13,208 nucleotides of DNA from a virus (lineage: Duplodnaviria > Heunggongvirae > Uroviricota > Caudoviricetes), in IMG/VR virus record IMGVR_UViG_2671180439_000003, one strand, 5' to 3'. Shown in pieces: positions 3,174 to 13,208 of the stretch. The position numbers and the translations under genes were made by a program. Position 1 is the first letter of the stretch. Every line of letters begins with the position of its first letter. Below the pieces are notes generated by a model. It had not been told where the DNA came from. It saw only the letters and a list, made by a program, of their open reading frames with translations, and made no database searches.

Positions 3174-3192
3174 CCTCAATATCCCATCCATC

Positions 3193-3217
3193 GGCCACCT
3201 AAAGGTGGCTTTTTATT
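3193..3217 (+). terminator. Rho-independent terminator downstream of the CI-like repressor gene
   Basis: Hairpin gccacc/ggtggc (3194-3199 and 3204-3209) with a 4-nt loop, followed by tttttatt (3210-3217). Confidence 0.6.
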
Positions 3218-3228
3218 ACCTATAAATT

Positions 3229-3264
3229 TGCATATCTCGCAAATATCACTTGCATATCTCGCAA
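3229..3264 (+). repeat. Two direct copies of the 14-bp sequence tgcatatctcgcaa, 22 bp centre to centre
   Basis: Exact copies at 3229-3242 and 3251-3264, in noncoding DNA just after the repressor terminator. Confidence 0.5.
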
Positions 3265-3429
3265 TTTAATTTTATCTTTTGTTCCAGACCAACTACAGGA
3301 TTACAACAAAATCTGGTTGCAACACGGTGCATGTGTCGTAAGCAGTCAGTAAATGTCAAAAACGAACAGGCAGGACGCCCACGAAGTAGCCGCCTGGGGC
3401 ATATGAAGTCCAGGATGATTCGTTAGCAA

Positions 3430-3453
3430 CAAAAAAGCGTCCTACAGGACGCT
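3430..3453 (-). terminator. Rho-independent terminator on the minus strand, at the 3' end of the Ag43 remnant ORF
   Basis: Stem agcgtcc/ggacgct (3436-3442 and 3447-3453) with loop taca; on the minus strand it is followed by a T6 run (plus-strand aaaaaa at 3430-3435). Confidence 0.5.
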
Positions 3454-4810
3454 TAGCTCTTTAACAATCTGGTCCCCATCAACAAGTAACTGATAACTTG
3501 AGGAGGTGTGAAATGCACAAAACAGAACCAAAAATCGTCGCGCCCGGATGCCCAGACGGAAGCCGGCACGCACATGTTGTGCACTGCCATGCCCGAACTT
3601 CACATAACCGGCGTTATCCTGGCCGTCATCCAGGGAGAGTCCCTGCCAGGTGTACTGCAGTTGCGGCTCCAGCATCAGATTGTCAGTGATACTGAAGAGC
3701 AGACCGGTTTCCAGTGAGCCCAGCCAGCCCCAGCCCCGGGCGCGGAAGTCGTTATTGTCCGATGACGCTTTCATGCTGTGGCGGGTTCCCTGTGCCACAA
3801 TGTCAGCCCACAGGCCGGAGGACGTGTGTGTCAGATTCAGGTATCCGCCCAGGCTGCCGGCATCATCCCGGACCGTGCCGGCGCGGGAACCGTCATCATC
3901 CTTAACATCAACGGAAGAATGGCCTGCAGCACCATATACCCCTGTCGTCAGAGACATACCGGCAACCTCTGTTCTCAGCAGGTCACCCTCCAGACGGACG
4001 AAGCCATAGCTGCCGCTGCTTTCCGGCGTGGCTCCACGGGCAATACCCCCCATTCAGCGTGGTATCCAGTGCGTGACCATGTACAGTCTGGTCGCCGCCG
4101 GCATAAACCACAGTGGTATTTGCCGTTCCTTCAGCAGCCACAATCTGACGACCATTTTTATTGATGGTGGTGCGTACGGCATCTCCGTAGACGGTCTGCC
4201 CTGTATCACCATTTTCTGCATCCGGTCCCCCTTCCGCGCCGGTATTCACAACCGTGTCGGTTGCCATTGCGCCGGATTTGACGGCCTGCCAGCCCTTCTC
4301 ATTAATGACGGTACCCGTTGCAATCCCGCCTTCATGTACCCACTGCTCACCGCCGTTCAGAGTGGTATTCACTGCCTGCCCCTGAAGGCTCTGTCCGCCT
4401 CCGGCACTGATAACCGTGTCTGAAACGCTTCCTCCGGCATTCACTCTCTGAAGACCACCACCGGTGACAGTAGTGTTGTTGGCGGTACCGCCATTTTGTA
4501 TCCATTGGCCGCCGGTATTCGCCTCGTTATCCGGCCCATACTCCAGCCCGGTACTGATGGTCATTCCGTTGGCCGTACCGAGAACAATCTGGTTGTCATG
4601 ATTTGTCAGTGTTCCGCCGCTCACGGTTTCTCCCGCCTGTACGACCGTGTCAGCAGCCAGTGCCGGGACTGATGTGACAGCAGCAAGAGACAGCACAATC
4701 GCCACACCGGCGCATTTTCCCCGTGAGCGGGCCAGTTCGGAAGCCACCACCAGGGTGCCCGTAATGTGATTCCATACCAGCCTGTAGCTGGTGTTCAGAT
4801 GTCGTTTCAT
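3442..4810 (-). pseudogene. flu: Antigen 43 (Ag43) self-associating autotransporter gene, disrupted: N-terminal passenger part, internal deletion/frameshift near 4046-4051, and 3' truncation of the beta-barrel domain
   Basis: N-terminal ORF begins MKRHLNTSYRLVWNHITG... with a long autotransporter signal peptide, then ...AADTVVQAGETVSGG... repeats; ATG at 4810 has an AGGA RBS. The second ORF in another frame contains ...GGIARGATPESSGSYGFVRLEGD...YVKFGHGSAQHVRAGFRLG, then non-barrel sequence with no C-terminal aromatic residue. Total about 1.37 kb, against roughly 3.1 kb recalled for intact flu. Confidence 0.85.
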
Positions 4811-5019
4811 CAGCTTTTCCTTACAGAGGGTGAATAAAAAAGCCGGTACCCACAAATGTGGATACCGGCAGGTACAAAACAGCATGGTCAGATAAAGTGG
4901 TTTTTCCCGGACATAAATGCTTCCCCTCTCTCATCCGCCAGAGAAGTATCAGTCCGTTGTGTGCAATTCCGTTCTGCATGATGAAGAGATTCAACTGCCT
5001 TTTCGCAGGCCATTAACCA

Positions 5020-5070
5020 CTATAAACGATCGATAGCAACGATCGATACCTGTTTTATCGATCGTTTTAT
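5020..5070 (-). promoter_or_regulatory. agn43 phase-variation switch region: three clustered Dam GATC sites (OxyR-binding region)
   Basis: GATC at 5028-5031, 5041-5044 and 5060-5063 within aaacgatcgatagcaacgatcgatacctgttttatcgatcg, about 220-250 bp upstream of the flu start codon on the same strand. Confidence 0.75.
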
Positions 5071-5182
5071 TCTATTGATTGCAAGGCGGTCACGCAAGAG
5101 AAACAGGAGGAGCATGAGGTGTTTGTGTCATGTTTTCAGTTGGTTAACGCAATGTAATCAGGCATTTCCCCTGGCAGACTGT

Positions 5183-6055
5183 TCAGAAGAAAATCCAGTT
5201 CCATACAGCGCGGGCAACAGAGACCACCGAGTCACGGACGGCACGCAGAACCGTGCGTGCAACAGAGGCAATACAGACGCTCTCCGCCGTGTCAAATATC
5301 CGGTCCACCGCACCGGTAAACTGTTCACGGGCCTGAGACCGGACAGATTCCGTGCGCAGCTCGTCCTGCAGGCGGGTCATCAGGGGACTGGTGGCATGGT
5401 CGGGAAGCGCCGTCATGAGCGCACTGACCAGCGTATCCAGTTCCCAGCCGGTGCGGGCCGATACGGCAACAACCGGATGTACGGGCCGGAACAGACGGAA
5501 TACCGCATCTGTTTTCTCACGAATATTCTGTGCCTGTGCGGGAGAAGGCTGAATGCCGGCCATATCCCATTCATGGCAGGGCTCCGTTTTGTCGGCCTGC
5601 GTCACCACAAACAGCACCTGCTGATGTCCCCGGTGCAGGATGTGTCGCCAGAAATACTCATCCACAGACAGGGCACGGTCATCGGCTTTAATCAGCCACA
5701 GTACCAGGTCAAGTTCAGGCAGAATGTCACGGTACAGGGCTTCATACTCTGCATCCCTGTCCCGGCTCTCGCCCACCCCGGGCAGGTCAGTGATAATCAT
5801 GCTGTGACCGTGGCCACTCAGACGGAAGCGCCGCACTTCCCGGGTGCCGGCGTGAACATCACTGACCGGGGTGACCTCCCCCTGAAACAGTGCATTACAG
5901 AGTGAGGATTTACCGGCCCCGCTTTTACCCATAATGCCAATCACGGGTTCGTGACTGGTGAGTTTACGCAGATGTTCCAGGATGTGACGGGAAAGTGAGT
6001 AAGGCAGGGAAGAAAGTGGTTTTTCAATTGCCTCAATGGCATCAGACGGATTCAT
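5183..6055 (-). CDS. yeeP: YeeP/YkfA/YfjP-family GTPase of unknown function (CP4-type island gene upstream of flu)
   Basis: P-loop GIMGKSGAGKSS, DLPG (G3) and TQAD (G4-like) motifs. Positioned immediately upstream of Ag43 on the same strand, as in CP4-44. Start assigned to the ATG at 6055; the track ORF extends to a non-ATG start at 6094. Confidence 0.75.
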   Translation of the reverse strand: MNPSDAIEAIEKPLSSLPYSLSRHILEHLRKLTSHEPVIGIMGKSGAGKSSLCNALFQGEVTPVSDVHAGTREVRRFRLSGHGHSMIITDLPGVGESRDRDAEYEALYRDILPELDLVLWLIKADDRALSVDEYFWRHILHRGHQQVLFVVTQADKTEPCHEWDMAGIQPSPAQAQNIREKTDAVFRLFRPVHPVVAVSARTGWELDTLVSALMTALPDHATSPLMTRLQDELRTESVRSQAREQFTGAVDRIFDTAESVCIASVARTVLRAVRDSVVSVARAVWNWIFF

Positions 6056-6070
6056 ACATGTATTCCCGGT

Positions 6071-6108
6071 GAAAAAAGACAAAACCCCGCGCACCGGAAA
6101 GGTGGCGG
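6071..6108 (-). terminator. Possible minus-strand intrinsic terminator (GC-rich bulged hairpin plus T-tract) just upstream of the yeeP-like start
   Basis: Plus-strand ccccgcgcaccggaaaggtggcgggg forms a stem of about 10 bp with one bulge. On the minus strand it is followed by a T-rich run (revcomp of gaaaaaagacaaaa at 6071-6084). Confidence 0.35.
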
Positions 6109-6318
6109 GGGATTCACGGAGATAATATCTGTCTGAAATTATTTAGAATGCACCTGGTGCACTGCAAAGGAAAGGCAATATTCCGTTCCTCCTCCTTGTC
6201 GTGAATACCCCAGGTATCTCACAATATACACCGACTTACTCCGGGGCTGCCTGAACCACAAGATTGCTGTAGAATTGCCCCCAATGATTCAGGTCCAAAC
6301 CAGGCAAATGGATTAAAA

Positions 6319-7875
6319 ATGACAAGTATTCAACAACGAGCAGAACTGCACCGCCAGATATGGCAAATTGCCAATGATGTCAGAGGTTCTGTTGACGGAT
6401 GGGATTTTAAGCAATACGTTCTGGGCGCGCTTTTCTACCGTTTTATCAGCGAAAATTTTTCCAGCTATATTGAAGCCGGTGATGACAGTATCTGTTATGC
6501 GAAACTGGATGACAGCGTAATTACTGATGACATTAAAGACGATGCCATCAAAACTAAAGGCTACTTCATCTACCCAAGTCAGCTTTTCTGCAACGTAGCT
6601 GCGAAAGCAAATACCAATGACAGACTGAATGCAGATTTAAACAGTATCTTCGTTGCTATCGAAAGTTCTGCTTACGGTTACCCTTCAGAAGCTGACATCA
6701 AAGGTTTGTTTGCTGATTTCGATACCACCAGTAACCGCCTGGGTAACACCGTTAAGGATAAAAATGCCCGCCTGGCTGCGGTTCTGAAAGGGGTTGAAGG
6801 GTTAAAGCTTGGCGACTTTAACGAACATCAGATTGACCTGTTCGGCGATGCCTATGAGTTCCTGATTTCTAACTATGCGGCGAATGCTGGTAAGTCAGGC
6901 GGCGAGTTCTTTACACCGCAGCACGTCTCCAGGCTGATTGCACAACTGGCAATGCACGGCCAGACCCACGTTAACAAAATCTACGACCCGGCAGCAGGTT
7001 CCGGTTCGCTGTTGTTGCAGGCTAAAAAACAGTTTGATGACCATATCATCGAAGAAGGTTTTTTTGGTCAGGAAATCAACCATACGACCTATAACCTGGC
7101 GCGTATGAACATGTTTTTGCACAACATCAACTACGACAAGTTTGATATCAAGTTGGGCAATACGCTGACTGAGCCGCACTTCAGAGATGAAAAACCGTTT
7201 GATGCCATCGTTTCTAACCCGCCGTATTCGGTGAAATGGATTGGCAGCGATGACCCGACGCTGATTAACGATGAACGTTTTGCCCCGGCTGGCGTTCTGG
7301 CCCCCAAATCCAAAGCTGACTTCGCGTTTGTATTACATGCGCTGAACTATCTTTCGGCCAAAGGTCGTGCTGCGATTGTCTGCTTCCCGGGTATTTTTTA
7401 CCGTGGCGGCGCGGAGCAGAAAATCCGTCAGTATCTGGTCGATAATAACTATGTCGAAACCGTGATTTCACTGGCACCGAACCTGTTCTTTGGCACCACC
7501 ATTGCCGTAAACATTCTGGTGCTGTCTAAACATAAAACGGATACCAAAGTTCAGTTTATTGACGCCAGCGAACTGTTCAAAAAAGAGACTAACAACAATA
7601 TCCTGACCGATGCCCATATCGAACAGATTATGCAGGTATTTGCCAGCAAGGAAGATGTTGCTCATCTGGCGAAATCTGTCACGTTTGAGACCGTTGTCGC
7701 GAATGACTATAACCTGTCGGTAAGCAGCTATGTGGAAGCGAAAGATAACCGCGAAATTATCGATATCGGTGAGCTGAATGCTGAGCTGAAAACCACGGTC
7801 AGCAAAATCGACCAGTTGCGCAAAGATATTGATGCGATTGTGGCTGAAATTGAAGGCTGCGAGGTGCAGAAATGA
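6319..7875 (+). CDS. hsdM: Type I restriction-modification system methyltransferase subunit HsdM (N6-adenine MTase)
   Basis: 518-aa ORF. N-terminal HsdM domain ([34 protein letters not shown]), AdoMet motif [11 protein letters not shown], catalytic motif IV NPPYS. Stop overlaps hsdS start (ATGA at 7872-7875). Confidence 0.95.
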
Positions 7876-9098
7876 GCGAGTTGAGTTATCTGGAAAAATT
7901 GCTGGATGGGGTTGAGGTTGAGTGGTTGCCATTGGGGGAAGTCTCAGCCTTAAGAAGAGGCAGAGTTATGTCAAAGGGATATTTAACTGAAAATTTTGGC
8001 CCATATCCTGTCTATAGCTCTCAAACTGCAAATAATGGGAAAATAGGTTCTATCAATACCTTCGATTTTGATGGCGAATATATAAGCTGGACAACAGATG
8101 GCGCAAATGCAGGCACTATGTTCTATCGAACAGGTAAATTTTCAATAACTAATGTTTGCGGCCTGATTACATTAAAAAGTAAATACTCATTAATCTACAA
8201 ATTTCTGTTTTACTGGCTAACAATAGAAGCCAAAAAACATGTTTACTCAGGAATGGGAAACCCCAAGTTAATGAGTCATCAGGTTGAAAATATACCTGTA
8301 CCAATCCCCTGCCCGGATAATCCGGAAAAATCCCTCGCCATCCAGTCTGAAATCGTTCGGATTCTGGACACATTCAGCGCCCTGACAGCAGAACTGACAG
8401 CAGAACTGACAGCAGAGCTTAACATGCGTAAAAAACAATACAACTACTATCGCGACCAGTTGTTGAGTTTTAATACCGAAGATGTTCCACATTTACCTAT
8501 GGGACAAAAAGATATTGGCGAGTTTATCCGGGGTGGTACTTTTCAGAAAAAAGACTTTATAGATGCAGGTGTAGGGTGCATACACTATGGTCAAATCTAT
8601 ACGTATTACGGAACATATACAGAAAAAACAAAAACATATATTTCAACCGCACTTGCAAAAAAATGCAAGAAGGCTCAAAAGGGAGATTTGATTATCGCAA
8701 CTACTAGTGAGAATGATGAGGATGTATGTAAAGCTGTTGCATGGTTAGGCAGTGAAGATATAGCAGTAAGCAGTGATGCCTGTATTTACAAACATAATTT
8801 AAACCCTAAGTATGTCTCATATTTTTTTCAAACAGAACAATTCCAAAATCAAAAAAGACAGTATATTACTGGCGCAAAAGTTCGGCGTGTAAATGCTGAT
8901 AATTTATCTAAGATATTAATTCCAGTTCCTTCTATGGAGATACAGGAACGTATAGTATCCATTCTCGATAAATTCGACACCCTGACAAACTCCATCACTG
9001 AAGGTCTTCCGCGTGAAATCGAGTTGCGCCAGAAACAATACGAATACTACCGTGATTTACTGTTCAGTTTCCCGAAACCTGAAACTGCCAGTAATTAA
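7872..9098 (+). CDS. hsdS: Type I R-M specificity subunit HsdS, type IC (EcoR124 family) architecture with two target-recognition domains and a central TAEL-repeat region
   Basis: 408-aa ORF. Conserved N-terminus [23 protein letters not shown], central [58 protein letters not shown]-terminal [40 protein letters not shown]. Two visibly AT-rich variable segments between the conserved blocks. Confidence 0.95.
8385..8420 (+). repeat. Tandem 12-bp repeat (acagcagaactg twice, then acagcagagctt) encoding [12 protein letters not shown] in the HsdS central conserved region
   Basis: Read directly: in-frame copies at 8385-8396, 8397-8408 and 8409-8420; the third has two synonymous changes. Confidence 0.9.
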
Positions 9099-9219
9099 TT
9101 GAGCATTGCTACCGATCGGACCACCTTAACACCCGGTCAGTATATAGACTATTTTTTACGCGCCGGAAGTCACTCTTAACGCCCTTCCGGCTCTTGCCAG
9201 GCGGCACAAAGGATGCGCT

Positions 9220-12200
9220 ATGACTAATCAAACACACACCATTGCTGAATCCAATAACTTTATCGTCCTTGATAAGTACATCAAAGCTGAGCAAACAAGC
9301 GACAGCTACCAGAGCGAATCGGACCTGGAACGTGAACTGATTCAGGACCTGCGGAATCAGGGTTATGAATTTATTTCCGTAAAATCACAGTCGGCAATGC
9401 TGTCCAATGTTCGGGAACAGCTTCAGAGCCTCAATGGTGTGATGTTTAATGACAGCGAGTGGCGGCGCTTCACGGAGCAGTATCTGGACAACCCCAGCGA
9501 TGGTATTCTGGATAAAACCCGTAAAATCCATATCGACTATATCTGCGACTTTATTTTTGACGACGGGCGTCTTGAGAACATCTATCTGATCGATAAAAAG
9601 AATCTCATGCGCAACAAAGTGCAGATTATCCAGCAGTTTGAACAGGCAGGTTCTCACGCTAACCGTTATGACGTAACTATCCTGGTTAATGGCTTGCCTC
9701 TGGTGCAAATCGAACTGAAAAAGCGCGGCGTGGCGATTCGTGAGGCTTTCAACCAGATACATCGTTACAGTAAAGAGAGTTTTAACAGCGAAAATTCCCT
9801 GTTTAAGTATCTGCAACTGTTCGTCATTTCTAACGGCACCGATACCCGTTACTTTGCCAACACCACAAAGCGCGATAAAAACAGTTTTGACTTCACCATG
9901 AACTGGGCGAAATCAGACAACACGCTGATTAAAGACCTCAAAGACTTTACCGCCACCTTTTTCCAGAAACATACTCTGCTGAATGTTCTGGTGAACTACA
10001 GCGTTTTTGACAGTAGTCAGACGCTACTGGTGATGCGACCGTACCAGATTGCAGCTACCGAACGAATTTTATGGAAAATCAACAGTTCCTATAAAGCGAA
10101 AAACTGGTCCACTCCCGAAAGTGGTGGCTTTATCTGGCACACCACCGGTTCCGGTAAAACACTGACCAGCTTTAAAGCCGCGCGTCTGGCAACAGAACTG
10201 GACTTTATTGATAAAGTCTTCTTCGTGGTCGACAGAAAAGACCTCGATTACCAGACGATGAAGGAATATCAGCGTTTTTCGCCAGACAGCGTCAACGGCT
10301 CGGAAAATACCGCAGGCCTTAAACGAAATCTGGATAAGGACGATAACAAAATTATCGTCACTACTATTCAGAAACTCAATAACCTGATGAAAGCAGAAAG
10401 CGACCTGCCTGTATATAATCAGCAAGTGGTGTTCATATTTGATGAATGCCACCGCAGCCAGTTTGGAGAAGCGCAGAAAAACCTGAAGAAGAAATTCAAA
10501 CGCTATTATCAGTTTGGTTTTACCGGCACACCTATTTTCCCGGAAAACGCTTTAGGCTCAGAAACGACCGCCAGCGTATTTGGCCGTGAATTGCATTCGT
10601 ATGTGATTACCGATGCGATTCGAGATGAAAAAGTGCTTAAATTCAAGGTGGACTACAACGATGTGCGGCCACAGTTTAAGTCTTTAGAGACAGAAACTGA
10701 CGAGAAAAAACTAAGTGCGGCTGAAAATCAGCAGGCGTTTCTTCATCCCATGCGTATTCAGGAAATCACGCAATATATTCTGAATAATTTCCGCCAGAAA
10801 ACTCACCGTACCTTCCCTGGCTCAAAAGGTTTTAATGCTATGTTGGCAGTGAGCAGCGTGGATGCCGCGAAAGCCTATTATGCGACGTTTAAACGGTTAC
10901 AAGAAGAAGCCGCTAATAAATCGGCTACCTATAAACCGCTGCGTATTGCGACAATCTTCTCCTTTGCCGCCAATGAAGAACAAAATGCCATTGGTGAAAT
11001 TTCCGATGAAACTTTTGATACCAGCGCAATGGACAGCAGTGCTAAAGAGTTTCTGGACGCTGCAATTCGTGAATATAACAGCCATTTTAAAACTAACTTT
11101 AGCACCGACAGTAACGGTTTTCAGAACTACTATCGTGATTTAGCCCAGCGGGTTAAAAATCAGGATATCGATCTGCTAATTGTCGTGGGGATGTTTTTAA
11201 CCGGCTTCGATGCTCCAACATTGAACACGCTATTCGTCGATAAAAACTTGCGTTTTCACGGCCTGATGCAGGCATTCTCCCGCACCAACCGCATTTATGA
11301 CGCCACTAAAACCTTCGGTAATATCGTCACTTTCCGGGATCTGGAACGCTCAACTATTGATGCCATAACGCTGTTTGGTGACAAAAACACCAAAAATGTG
11401 GTGTTAGAAAAGAGTTATACAGAGTATATGGAAGGCTTTACTGATGCTGCCACTGGTGAAGCTAAACGCGGCTTCATGACAGTAGTTTCAGAACTGGAAC
11501 AACGGTTCCCTGACCCTGCCAGTATTGAAAGTGAAAAAGAGAAGAAAGACTTCGTTAAACTGTTTGGCGAATACCTGCGTGCCGAGAACATCCTGCAAAA
11601 CTATGATGAATTTGCCACGCTGAAAGCCCTGCAACAAATCGATCTGAGCGATCCTGTTGCGGTAGAAAAATTCAAAGCAGAACATTATGTGGATGATGAA
11701 AAGTTCGCTGAATTGCAAACAATTCGTCTCCCTGCTGATCGCAAGATTCAGGATTATCGTTCTGCCTATAACGATATTCGCGACTGGCAGCGCCGTGAGA
11801 AAGAAGCTGAGAAAAAAGAGAAATCAACCACTGACTGGGATGACGTAGTTTTTGAGGTCGATTTGCTGAAGTCTCAGGAAATAAACCTGGATTATATCCT
11901 TGGACTGATTTTCGAACACAACAGACAAAATAAAGGCAAGGGCGAAATGATCGAAGAGGTCAAACGCTTAATTCGTTCAAGCCTAGGGAACCGTGCTAAA
12001 GAGGGCCTGGTGGTCGATTTTATTCAGCAAACGAACCTGGATGATTTACCGGACAAAGCCAGCATCATTGACGCATTCTTTACGTTTGCTCAACGCGAAC
12101 AGCAACGTGAAGCAGAAGCCTTGATCAAAGAAGAAAATCTCAATGAAGAGGCGGCGAAACGCTATATTCGCACATCTTTAAAACGCGAATACGCCACCGA

Positions 12201-12336
12201 AAATGGCACGGAATTAAACGAGACACTGCCCAGACTCAGTCCTTTAAATCCGCAATATAAAACGAAAAAAAAGACTGTTTTTCAAAAAATTAGCGCATTT
12301 ATTGAAAAATTTAAGGGGGTGGGTGGAAAGATTTAG
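9220..12336 (+). CDS. hsdR: Type I R-M restriction subunit HsdR (endonuclease/translocase), EcoR124I-HsdR-like
   Basis: 1038-aa ORF with AAGGA RBS. PD-(D/E)xK residues D151, E165, K167 in [19 protein letters not shown] fall at the positions recalled for the EcoR124I HsdR active site. Helicase motifs TGSGKT, DECH, TGTP. Length equals the recalled EcoR124I HsdR length. Confidence 0.95.

Positions 12337-13208
<872 letters not shown>

Follow-up and report, generated by a model that had tools for sequence, protein, structure and literature searches.

An intact hsd locus of the EcoR124 family

The window analysed here, a stretch of 13,208 nucleotides from a Caudoviricetes record (IMG/VR IMGVR_UViG_2671180439_000003), carries the three genes that make up a restriction-modification system of type I, hsdM, hsdS and hsdR. 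An earlier reading of the sequence alone (hereafter the original prediction) had described them as a complete type IC operon in mobile DNA. A six-frame list of open reading frames (ORFs) placed the genes, alignment to EcoR124I HsdS gave approximate bounds for the target recognition domains (TRDs), and Tandem Repeats Finder (TRF) together with translation placed a short repeat between them:

6319-7875, + strand: hsdM, N6-adenine DNA methyltransferase subunit, 518 amino acids
7872-9098, + strand: hsdS, specificity subunit, 408 amino acids
7938-8300, + strand: TRD1 of hsdS, about residues 23-143 (approximate bounds), GC 0.355
8382-8420, + strand: 12-bp tandem repeat encoding TAEL three times, residues 172-183, in the central conserved helix
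8469-8927, + strand: TRD2 of hsdS, about residues 200-352 (approximate bounds), GC 0.344
9220-12336, + strand: hsdR, restriction/translocase subunit, 1038 amino acids

The ORF list, family models and gap-free alignments bore out that all three genes are full length at these positions, and the hsdM stop overlaps the hsdS start in an ATGA at 7872-7875, as had been predicted. The catalytic motif set of a type I enzyme is complete. HsdM contains the S-adenosylmethionine-binding motif I (DPAAGSG, near residue 223) and motif IV (NPPY, residue 300), and HsdR contains a PD-(D/E)xK triad (D151, E165, K167), QxxxY at 179 and the superfamily 2 helicase motifs GSGKT at 310 and DECH at 408; every motif named in the original prediction was found where it had been placed. 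HsdM matched the Pfam domains N6_Mtase and HsdM_N and the NCBIfam model TIGR00497 (hsdM) at 649 bits (cut-off 243), and HsdS contains two copies of Methylase_S. HsdR carries HSDR_N, SWI2_SNF2/ResIII, T1R_D3-like and EcoR124_C domains (E = 1e-71 for EcoR124_C) and matched TIGR00348 (hsdR) at 762 bits (cut-off 285). RefSeq annotates all three proteins (WP_000200813.1 for HsdM, WP_020233939.1 for HsdS, and WP_020233940.1); HsdM is identical to its record and occurs as this exact sequence on at least 1000 contigs, and the exact HsdR sequence is present on 586 contigs.

Alignment to solved EcoR124I subunits revealed how close the relationship is. HsdM residues 1-518 align to residues 3-520 of EcoR124I HsdM (7bst_D; the solved chain has two extra N-terminal residues) with 5 substitutions (~99% identity), and HsdR residues 1-1038 align to 1-1038 of EcoR124I HsdR (2w00_A) without gaps and with ~20 substitutions (~98% identity). 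These full-length, gap-free alignments exclude truncation or frameshift in either subunit. None of the HsdR substitutions falls in D151/E165/K167, QxxxY, GSGKT or DECH, and HsdR ends in the same residues (...KFKGVGGKI) as its EcoR124I counterpart. Premature stops or inactivating substitutions had been named as what would overturn the prediction; we saw no premature stop, and the ~25 substitutions relative to EcoR124I miss the catalytic motifs altogether.

Type I enzymes are grouped into families on the basis of complementation, antibody cross-reaction and sequence (PMC3874165). By similarity of HsdM and HsdR to the EcoR124I prototype, the locus belongs to type IC, and the 98-99% identity makes complementation with EcoR124I subunits very likely. 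All three genes lie on the + strand in the order hsdM-hsdS-hsdR, with hsdM and hsdS adjacent, which is reportedly the order typical of type IC. HsdS also has the type IC layout, with a short conserved N-terminus, TRD1, a central helix bearing TAEL repeats, TRD2 and a conserved C-terminus; residues 1-22, ~144-199 and ~353-408 are conserved with EcoR124I HsdS (7bst_A), while both TRDs are unrelated. The type IC assignment, first suggested by gene order, is thus upheld by subunit identity and HsdS architecture. To judge from these comparisons, horizontally acquired DNA here carries an intact restriction-modification system of type IC (EcoR124 family).

Among characterized systems, EcoR124II (EcoR124/3; plasmid R124/3; target GAA N7 RTCG) has the same gene order, HsdM ~99% and HsdR ~98% identical and of equal length, and the same conserved HsdS frame with three TAEL repeats in the central helix (PMC3874165). 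It differs in both TRDs, in the DNA upstream of hsdM (except for a short -10-like block) and in residing on an IncFIV plasmid, whereas the window locus is chromosomal in an island like CP4-44. EcoR124I (GAA N6 RTCG; structures 2w00 and 7bst) shares the likenesses of EcoR124II, but the window copy has one TAEL repeat more and other TRDs; the linker length of EcoR124I (404-residue HsdS) is instead shared by two-TAEL sister alleles of the window gene (PCN061 and many genomes of sequence type 167, ST167). EcoprrI (prrABD), compared here by description, is likewise a chromosomal E. coli type IC system with three TAEL repeats (PMC3874165), but has an embedded anticodon nuclease gene, prrC. The window locus is not of this prr type: no prrC-like gene lies between hsdS and hsdR because the 121-bp gap there holds no ORF.

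Recognition domains and TAEL repeats of HsdS

The two TRDs are AT-rich (GC values above) relative to the three conserved hsdS segments (0.435-0.488), hsdM (0.463) and hsdR (0.439), which confirms a contrast that had been drawn by eye. Because both TRDs differ from those of EcoR124I, the half-sites should differ as well, and the window HsdS would have a specificity of its own with another pair of half-sites. The window hsdS is 100% identical in DNA to hsdS of E. coli CH4784 and Y5 (annotated WP_020233939.1), and its parts also occur separately: the hsdS of a plasmid (H55) matches the TRD1 half at 95.7%, and TRD2 is joined to other TRD1s in common E. coli HsdS proteins (P0044, and P0094 on at least 1000 contigs). 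When we compared the window with a diverged chromosomal copy in strain ET300, only 5 of 1227 hsdS bases differed, against 2.2% of hsdM and 3.8% of hsdR. One hsdS allele is thus found in backbones that have diverged, as would be expected were recombination to move specificity genes about.

Two relatives show other rearrangements of hsdS. In a 407-residue HsdS homologue (P0028), TRD1 is duplicated in place of TRD2, and by analogy with engineered homodimeric S subunits this protein should recognise a palindromic version of the TRD1 half-site. The chromosomal hsdS of strain Ec387 (L019, 4753-5961), in the equivalent island slot, combines the EcoR124I TRD1 (GAA half-site) with three TAEL repeats and another TRD2, and is a natural hybrid of the kind built in vitro in the 1990s.

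Searches for the recognition sequence itself were negative. We found no published recognition sequence for this hsdS allele in literature on TAEL/EcoR124, type IC methylomes, ST167 methylation or the RefSeq accessions, and an ST131 methylome paper covers other families only, with nothing on this allele. A homologue search for HsdS returned generic names and no specificity, and a PDB search gave no TRD-level similarity to solved S subunits beyond two weak Thermoanaerobacter matches.

The central helix of HsdS allows a prediction of the spacer. TRF reported a repeat at 8382-8416 with period 12, 2.9 copies and 100% matches; the three TAEL units that it encodes had gone unnoticed in the original prediction. 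The EcoR124I HsdS chain has two. In the prototype enzymes, two TAEL repeats give GAA N6 RTCG (EcoR124I) and three give GAA N7 RTCG (EcoR124II); EcoDXXI and EcoprrI have three, and altering the repeat number in hybrids of EcoDXXI altered the spacer as predicted (PMC3874165). Removal of one unit from EcoR124II, which converts it to EcoR124I, changed the set of restricted phages as judged by plaquing (PMC10644984). By the EcoR124I/II repeat rule, the window allele should recognise its half-sites across the longer, 7-nt spacer.

We found that repeat number varies in nature. Among 5426 complete E. coli genomes, over which all distribution counts in this work were made, 62 carry both window TRDs; of 60 listed, 34 have a 1227-bp hsdS with three repeats and 26 a 1215-bp hsdS with two. 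The PCN061 and ST167 alleles are the window allele minus one 12-bp unit, with no other change (we take the Houston 'strain 167' set to be ST167). Aligning 14 chromosomal loci to the window across its positions 5101-13208 (8.1 kb) resolved three haplotype clusters, with 0-5 other differences within a cluster and at least 24 between clusters. One contains CREC-629, SUISSEKPC3NDM5 and CM IVRI KOL-1 with three repeats and CREC-532 and ECO11 with two; another contains Y5 and 167_CM132950 with three and 167_CM132955 and YDC107 with two; the last pairs the window (three) with PCN061 (two). Both repeat states thus occur in each of three clusters, and repeat number must therefore have changed independently at least three times. 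On this haplotype evidence, the EcoR124I/II-type switch in repeat number has occurred at least three times in nature.

Could errors of assembly or sequencing explain the difference between two and three repeats? Miscalls do occur in tandem repeats, and many of these genomes come from long-read assemblies whose polishing quality is unknown. Nevertheless, the array is only 36 bp, far below read length; the alleles differ in every case by a single in-frame 12-bp unit, with no further change; the two states divide 34 to 26 among 60 assemblies contributed by many laboratories and countries; and the two forms are held as separate RefSeq protein records (WP_020233939.1/WP_042047042.1 and WP_050019106.1/WP_001293044.1). 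We thus regard an artefact as scarcely credible and the polymorphism as natural. A one-repeat HsdS form was seen on a single contig (P0024). The exact 408-residue HsdS is absent from a 15-billion-protein collection, though present in RefSeq, and three perfect TAEL units occur in none of the best 120 homologues there, against the 34 of 60 complete genomes; this absence is probably a gap in the collection.

Chromosomal island, phage-plasmid relatives and the downstream insertion sequence

The original prediction had described the type IC family as plasmid-borne and proposed asking whether the contig is plasmid or chromosome. The whole window matches two E. coli chromosomes, CH4784 and PCN061, at 99.8-99.9%, and window positions 3546-13208 match many more E. 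coli chromosomes at 99.2-99.4%, so the locus is chromosomal and the plasmid association does not hold for it. RefSeq annotation of a 99.9%-identical chromosome bears out the neighbours that had been named (prophage remnant, Ag43 remnant, IS1 and IS5), placing around the locus the insertion sequence (IS) IS1A, a lambdoid prophage remnant, a frameshifted and truncated Ag43, a GTPase gene and an ISKpn26-like IS5-family element. In addition, Rfam places the small RNA IS102/IsrC at 4829-5065 on the - strand, where it scores 73.7 bits (gathering score 46) and separates the Ag43 remnant from the yeeP-like GTPase gene. We take this GTPase-IsrC-Ag43 order to correspond to yeeP-isrC-flu as arranged in the CP4-44 prophage of E. 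coli K-12. An undamaged island of the type seen in strain Y5 contains a P4-type integrase, a CbtA/YeeU toxin-antitoxin pair, a KlcA/ArdB-type antirestriction gene, full-length Ag43, the GTPase and the hsd genes. By this gene content, the window hsd locus is best described as chromosomal cargo of a CP4-44-like E. coli island.

The description of the locus as IS-bounded stands only as a description. IS1 and the IS5-family element are unrelated and form no composite transposon, and relatives carry the hsd-IS5 unit without IS1; in Y5 it lies beside intact Ag43, with neither IS1 nor the prophage remnant.

Part of the island has been replaced in the window. Within positions ~3174-4885 a junction lies near 3546, where similarity to intact-island relatives starts; to its left, the C-terminal part of Ag43, the antirestriction gene, the CbtA/YeeU pair and the integrase have given way to the prophage remnant and IS1. 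The window strain has therefore lost the KlcA/ArdB-type antirestriction gene and kept the restriction system. This IS1 also truncates fdeC, and this IS1/prophage rearrangement is common to CH4784 and PCN061 only.

Distribution counts revealed how widely this arrangement occurs. The intergenic DNA upstream of hsdM is joined to hsdM in 577 of the 5426 genomes, nearly always on the chromosome. Islands without this hsdM-linked DNA hold other cargo in the slot beside the GTPase gene, one of them a ParA gene followed a few kb on by a different type I system. We counted type IC hsdS matches in 1304 genomes (about a quarter), at 906 chromosomal and 674 plasmid places. Chromosomal type IC systems have been described in the leuX hotspot (PMC12707154), and chromosomal residence as such is therefore not new.

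Four further features bear on expression and on the right-hand end of the locus:

6095-6318, + strand: intergenic DNA separating hsdM from the divergent GTPase gene, probable promoter region for hsdM-hsdS
9099-9219, + strand: 121-bp hsdS-hsdR intergenic gap, candidate separate hsdR promoter
12333-12336, + strand: TTAG, made up of the third base of the closing Ile codon (ATT) and the hsdR stop TAG, probable target site of the IS5-family element
12337-13208, - strand: IS5-family element (ISKpn26-like; RefSeq ISKpn26-family transposase in matching chromosomes), running past the window end

Some 2800 E. coli genomes carrying the GTPase share bases 6095-6152. Similarity to plasmid copies by megablast, at ~96%, runs from ~6306-6316 to exactly 12336. 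Global alignment found one block upstream of hsdM shared with a plasmid copy, TTGCTGTAGAAT at 6264-6275, which holds a TAGAAT -10-like hexamer, and found nothing shared after the hsdR stop codon. The hsdS-hsdR gap is identical to that of a phage-plasmid copy at 124 of 127 positions, compared with ~96% for the less conserved coding DNA, and a consensus scan detected a sigma-70-like TTAACA-18-TATTTT at 9126-9155 within it. In type I systems hsdR is reported to have its own promoter. The label 'operon' is loose, as hsdR stands apart behind this gap and its promoter-like match. A structured RNA or attenuator in the gap was rejected, as its fold was no better than shuffles (z = -0.84) and Rfam had no match there.

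The best plasmid matches are P1-like phage-plasmids with phd/doc upstream. Cassettes on such phage-plasmids and phages (p1919D3-2, phi456 and vB_EcoM-673R5) are ~96% identical in DNA to the window from just before the hsdM start to the hsdR stop, with a nearly identical hsdS-hsdR gap, but differ in the hsdS TRDs and in both flanks, phd/doc lying upstream on the phage-plasmid; the likeness of the phage-plasmid to the window ends exactly at the hsdR stop codon. On plasmid p1919D3-2 a near-identical EcoR124-family cassette lies beside phd/doc (L003, 3226-10075), and three deposited phage records (H211-H213) carry the same hsdR. Temperate phage-plasmids are therefore one vehicle for the EcoR124 family.

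At the other end of the locus, an IS5-type inverted repeat, GGAAGGTGCGAATAAG, begins at 12337, directly after the hsdR stop TAG. HsdR is unchanged because the insertion starts after its stop codon; we had considered that the element truncates or extends HsdR, and the position of the inverted repeat and the EcoR124I-like C-terminus rule this out. The element is 1196 bp with terminal inverted repeats (L001), and CH4784, Y5, PCN061, YDC107 and Iso00041 all carry the 1196-bp element with TTAG on both sides. We found no clean empty site for it; Ec387 lacks the IS and has unrelated DNA after the stop codon. The TTAG on either flank thus fits, but does not prove, simple insertion into a TTAG of which the stop codon is part.

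The hsdR-IS junction is present in 213 of the 5426 genomes, against the 62 with this hsdS allele. In nine of the loci compared (L006-L011, L013, L016 and L017) the left junction between hsdR and IS5 is kept and the right flank differs or the IS is truncated. At least five right-hand contexts were seen, namely a CPBP/sugar-utilisation cluster, IS903B with prophage tail genes, a broken N6-methylase gene with DUF262 genes, dms genes, and lut genes; in some of them a matching TTAG is missing. From these junctions, the IS5 insertion is old and became a rearrangement point later, the IS evidently having served as a recombination or deletion point. A 63-residue ORF at 12311-12502 on the - strand (RefSeq hypothetical WP_306315095.1) spans the IS5 terminus and the hsdR 3' end; it owes its existence to the insertion junction alone and is probably not a real gene.

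Predicted activity of the locus and its alternatives

Taken together, these data argue that the locus encodes an active EcoR124-type restriction-modification enzyme in a chromosomal CP4-44-like island, with a spacer set by its TAEL repeats, a reading to which we give a probability of about 85% on sequence evidence. By homology to EcoR124I, two HsdM and one HsdS (M2S1) would act together as a methyltransferase, modifying a single adenine in either half of a bipartite target, and with one or two HsdR added (R1-2M2S1) the complex would become a translocase-nuclease, driven by ATP, that cleaves foreign DNA, such as that of phages or plasmids, entering the cell unmethylated. A half-site pair differing from that of EcoR124I would be set by the two AT-rich TRDs, and a longer spacer (7 nt, as in EcoR124II, EcoDXXI and EcoprrI) by the three TAEL repeats. 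Gain or loss of one 12-bp unit, through rare slippage or unequal crossing-over, has switched the gene between three and two repeats several times in natural lineages and should toggle the target between N7 and N6 spacers.

Several observations weigh against activity. A strict consensus promoter scan found no site upstream of hsdM, a region that is unlike the plasmid copies apart from the -10-like block; we found no methylome or plaquing data for this allele in the searchable literature; and in at least one relative, YDC107 (L014, two repeats), a one-base deletion at window-equivalent position 10678 frameshifts hsdR. The locus can therefore decay, and YDC107 would be a natural restriction-minus, modification-plus derivative. 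The upstream and frameshift findings would fit a silent or decaying remnant whose frames are intact but unexpressed or inactivated by substitutions, as is often the case with cargo of degraded islands. The surroundings are indeed degraded, with truncated and frameshifted Ag43, prophage fragments and IS elements, and the window island lost part of Ag43 and more to the IS1/prophage rearrangement. Selection on the coding sequence points the other way. Between the window and the diverged ET300 copy, synonymous to nonsynonymous codon changes number 30:3 in hsdM and 90:23 in hsdR, and this synonymous excess indicates purifying selection on both genes. Moreover, the catalytic motifs have escaped substitution, the upstream region has stayed joined to hsdM in 577 genomes, and plasmid copies conserve the hsdS-hsdR gap as well as the -10-like block. 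We thus consider a silent remnant improbable.

The locus could instead serve a mainly epigenetic role, in which the TAEL switch acts as a slow, phase-variable change of methyltransferase specificity, like a phasevarion, that alters host expression. Both repeat states recur in natural lineages, and repeat-driven changes of type I specificity have been proposed as phasevarions (PMC7383803). However, full-length hsdR is retained under purifying selection, and with only two or three 12-bp units switching should be rare compared with simple-sequence contingency loci. In addition, methylation by three E. coli type I systems is reported to leave host gene regulation unaffected (PMC8287963). A mainly epigenetic role therefore seems to us very unlikely, and we favour an active restriction-modification enzyme.

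If the enzyme is active in both repeat forms, the locus may be a naturally toggling two-state restriction barrier. Flips between N7 and N6 versions of the same half-sites within single epidemic lineages would turn sister sublineages into mutual barriers to plasmids and phages, and the population as a whole would be hedged against phages able to escape one specificity. We put this forward tentatively, at somewhat less than even odds. Strain names among the repeat-polymorphic lineages (NDM3-NDM6 and SUISSEKPC3NDM5) point to carbapenemase carriage. Were such a barrier real, the laboratory EcoR124I/EcoR124II switch would have its first natural counterpart at population scale.

The family, its architecture, mechanism, structures and repeat switch are textbook knowledge, and the proteins are already in RefSeq; the recurrent natural two/three-repeat polymorphism in clinically important lineages is something that we did not find described in the searchable literature. 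Our results correct the view of type IC as plasmid-borne, since complete E. coli genomes carry these systems more often on chromosomes, and identify the slot beside the yeeP-like GTPase gene in CP4-44-like islands as one recurrent home (577 genomes). They also reveal the EcoR124I/II spacer switch, known from laboratory plasmids, as a recurrent natural polymorphism in clinically important clones. If both repeat forms are active, closely related isolates would accept different foreign DNA, which bears on plasmid spread and on the choice of phages or cloning hosts for these strains.

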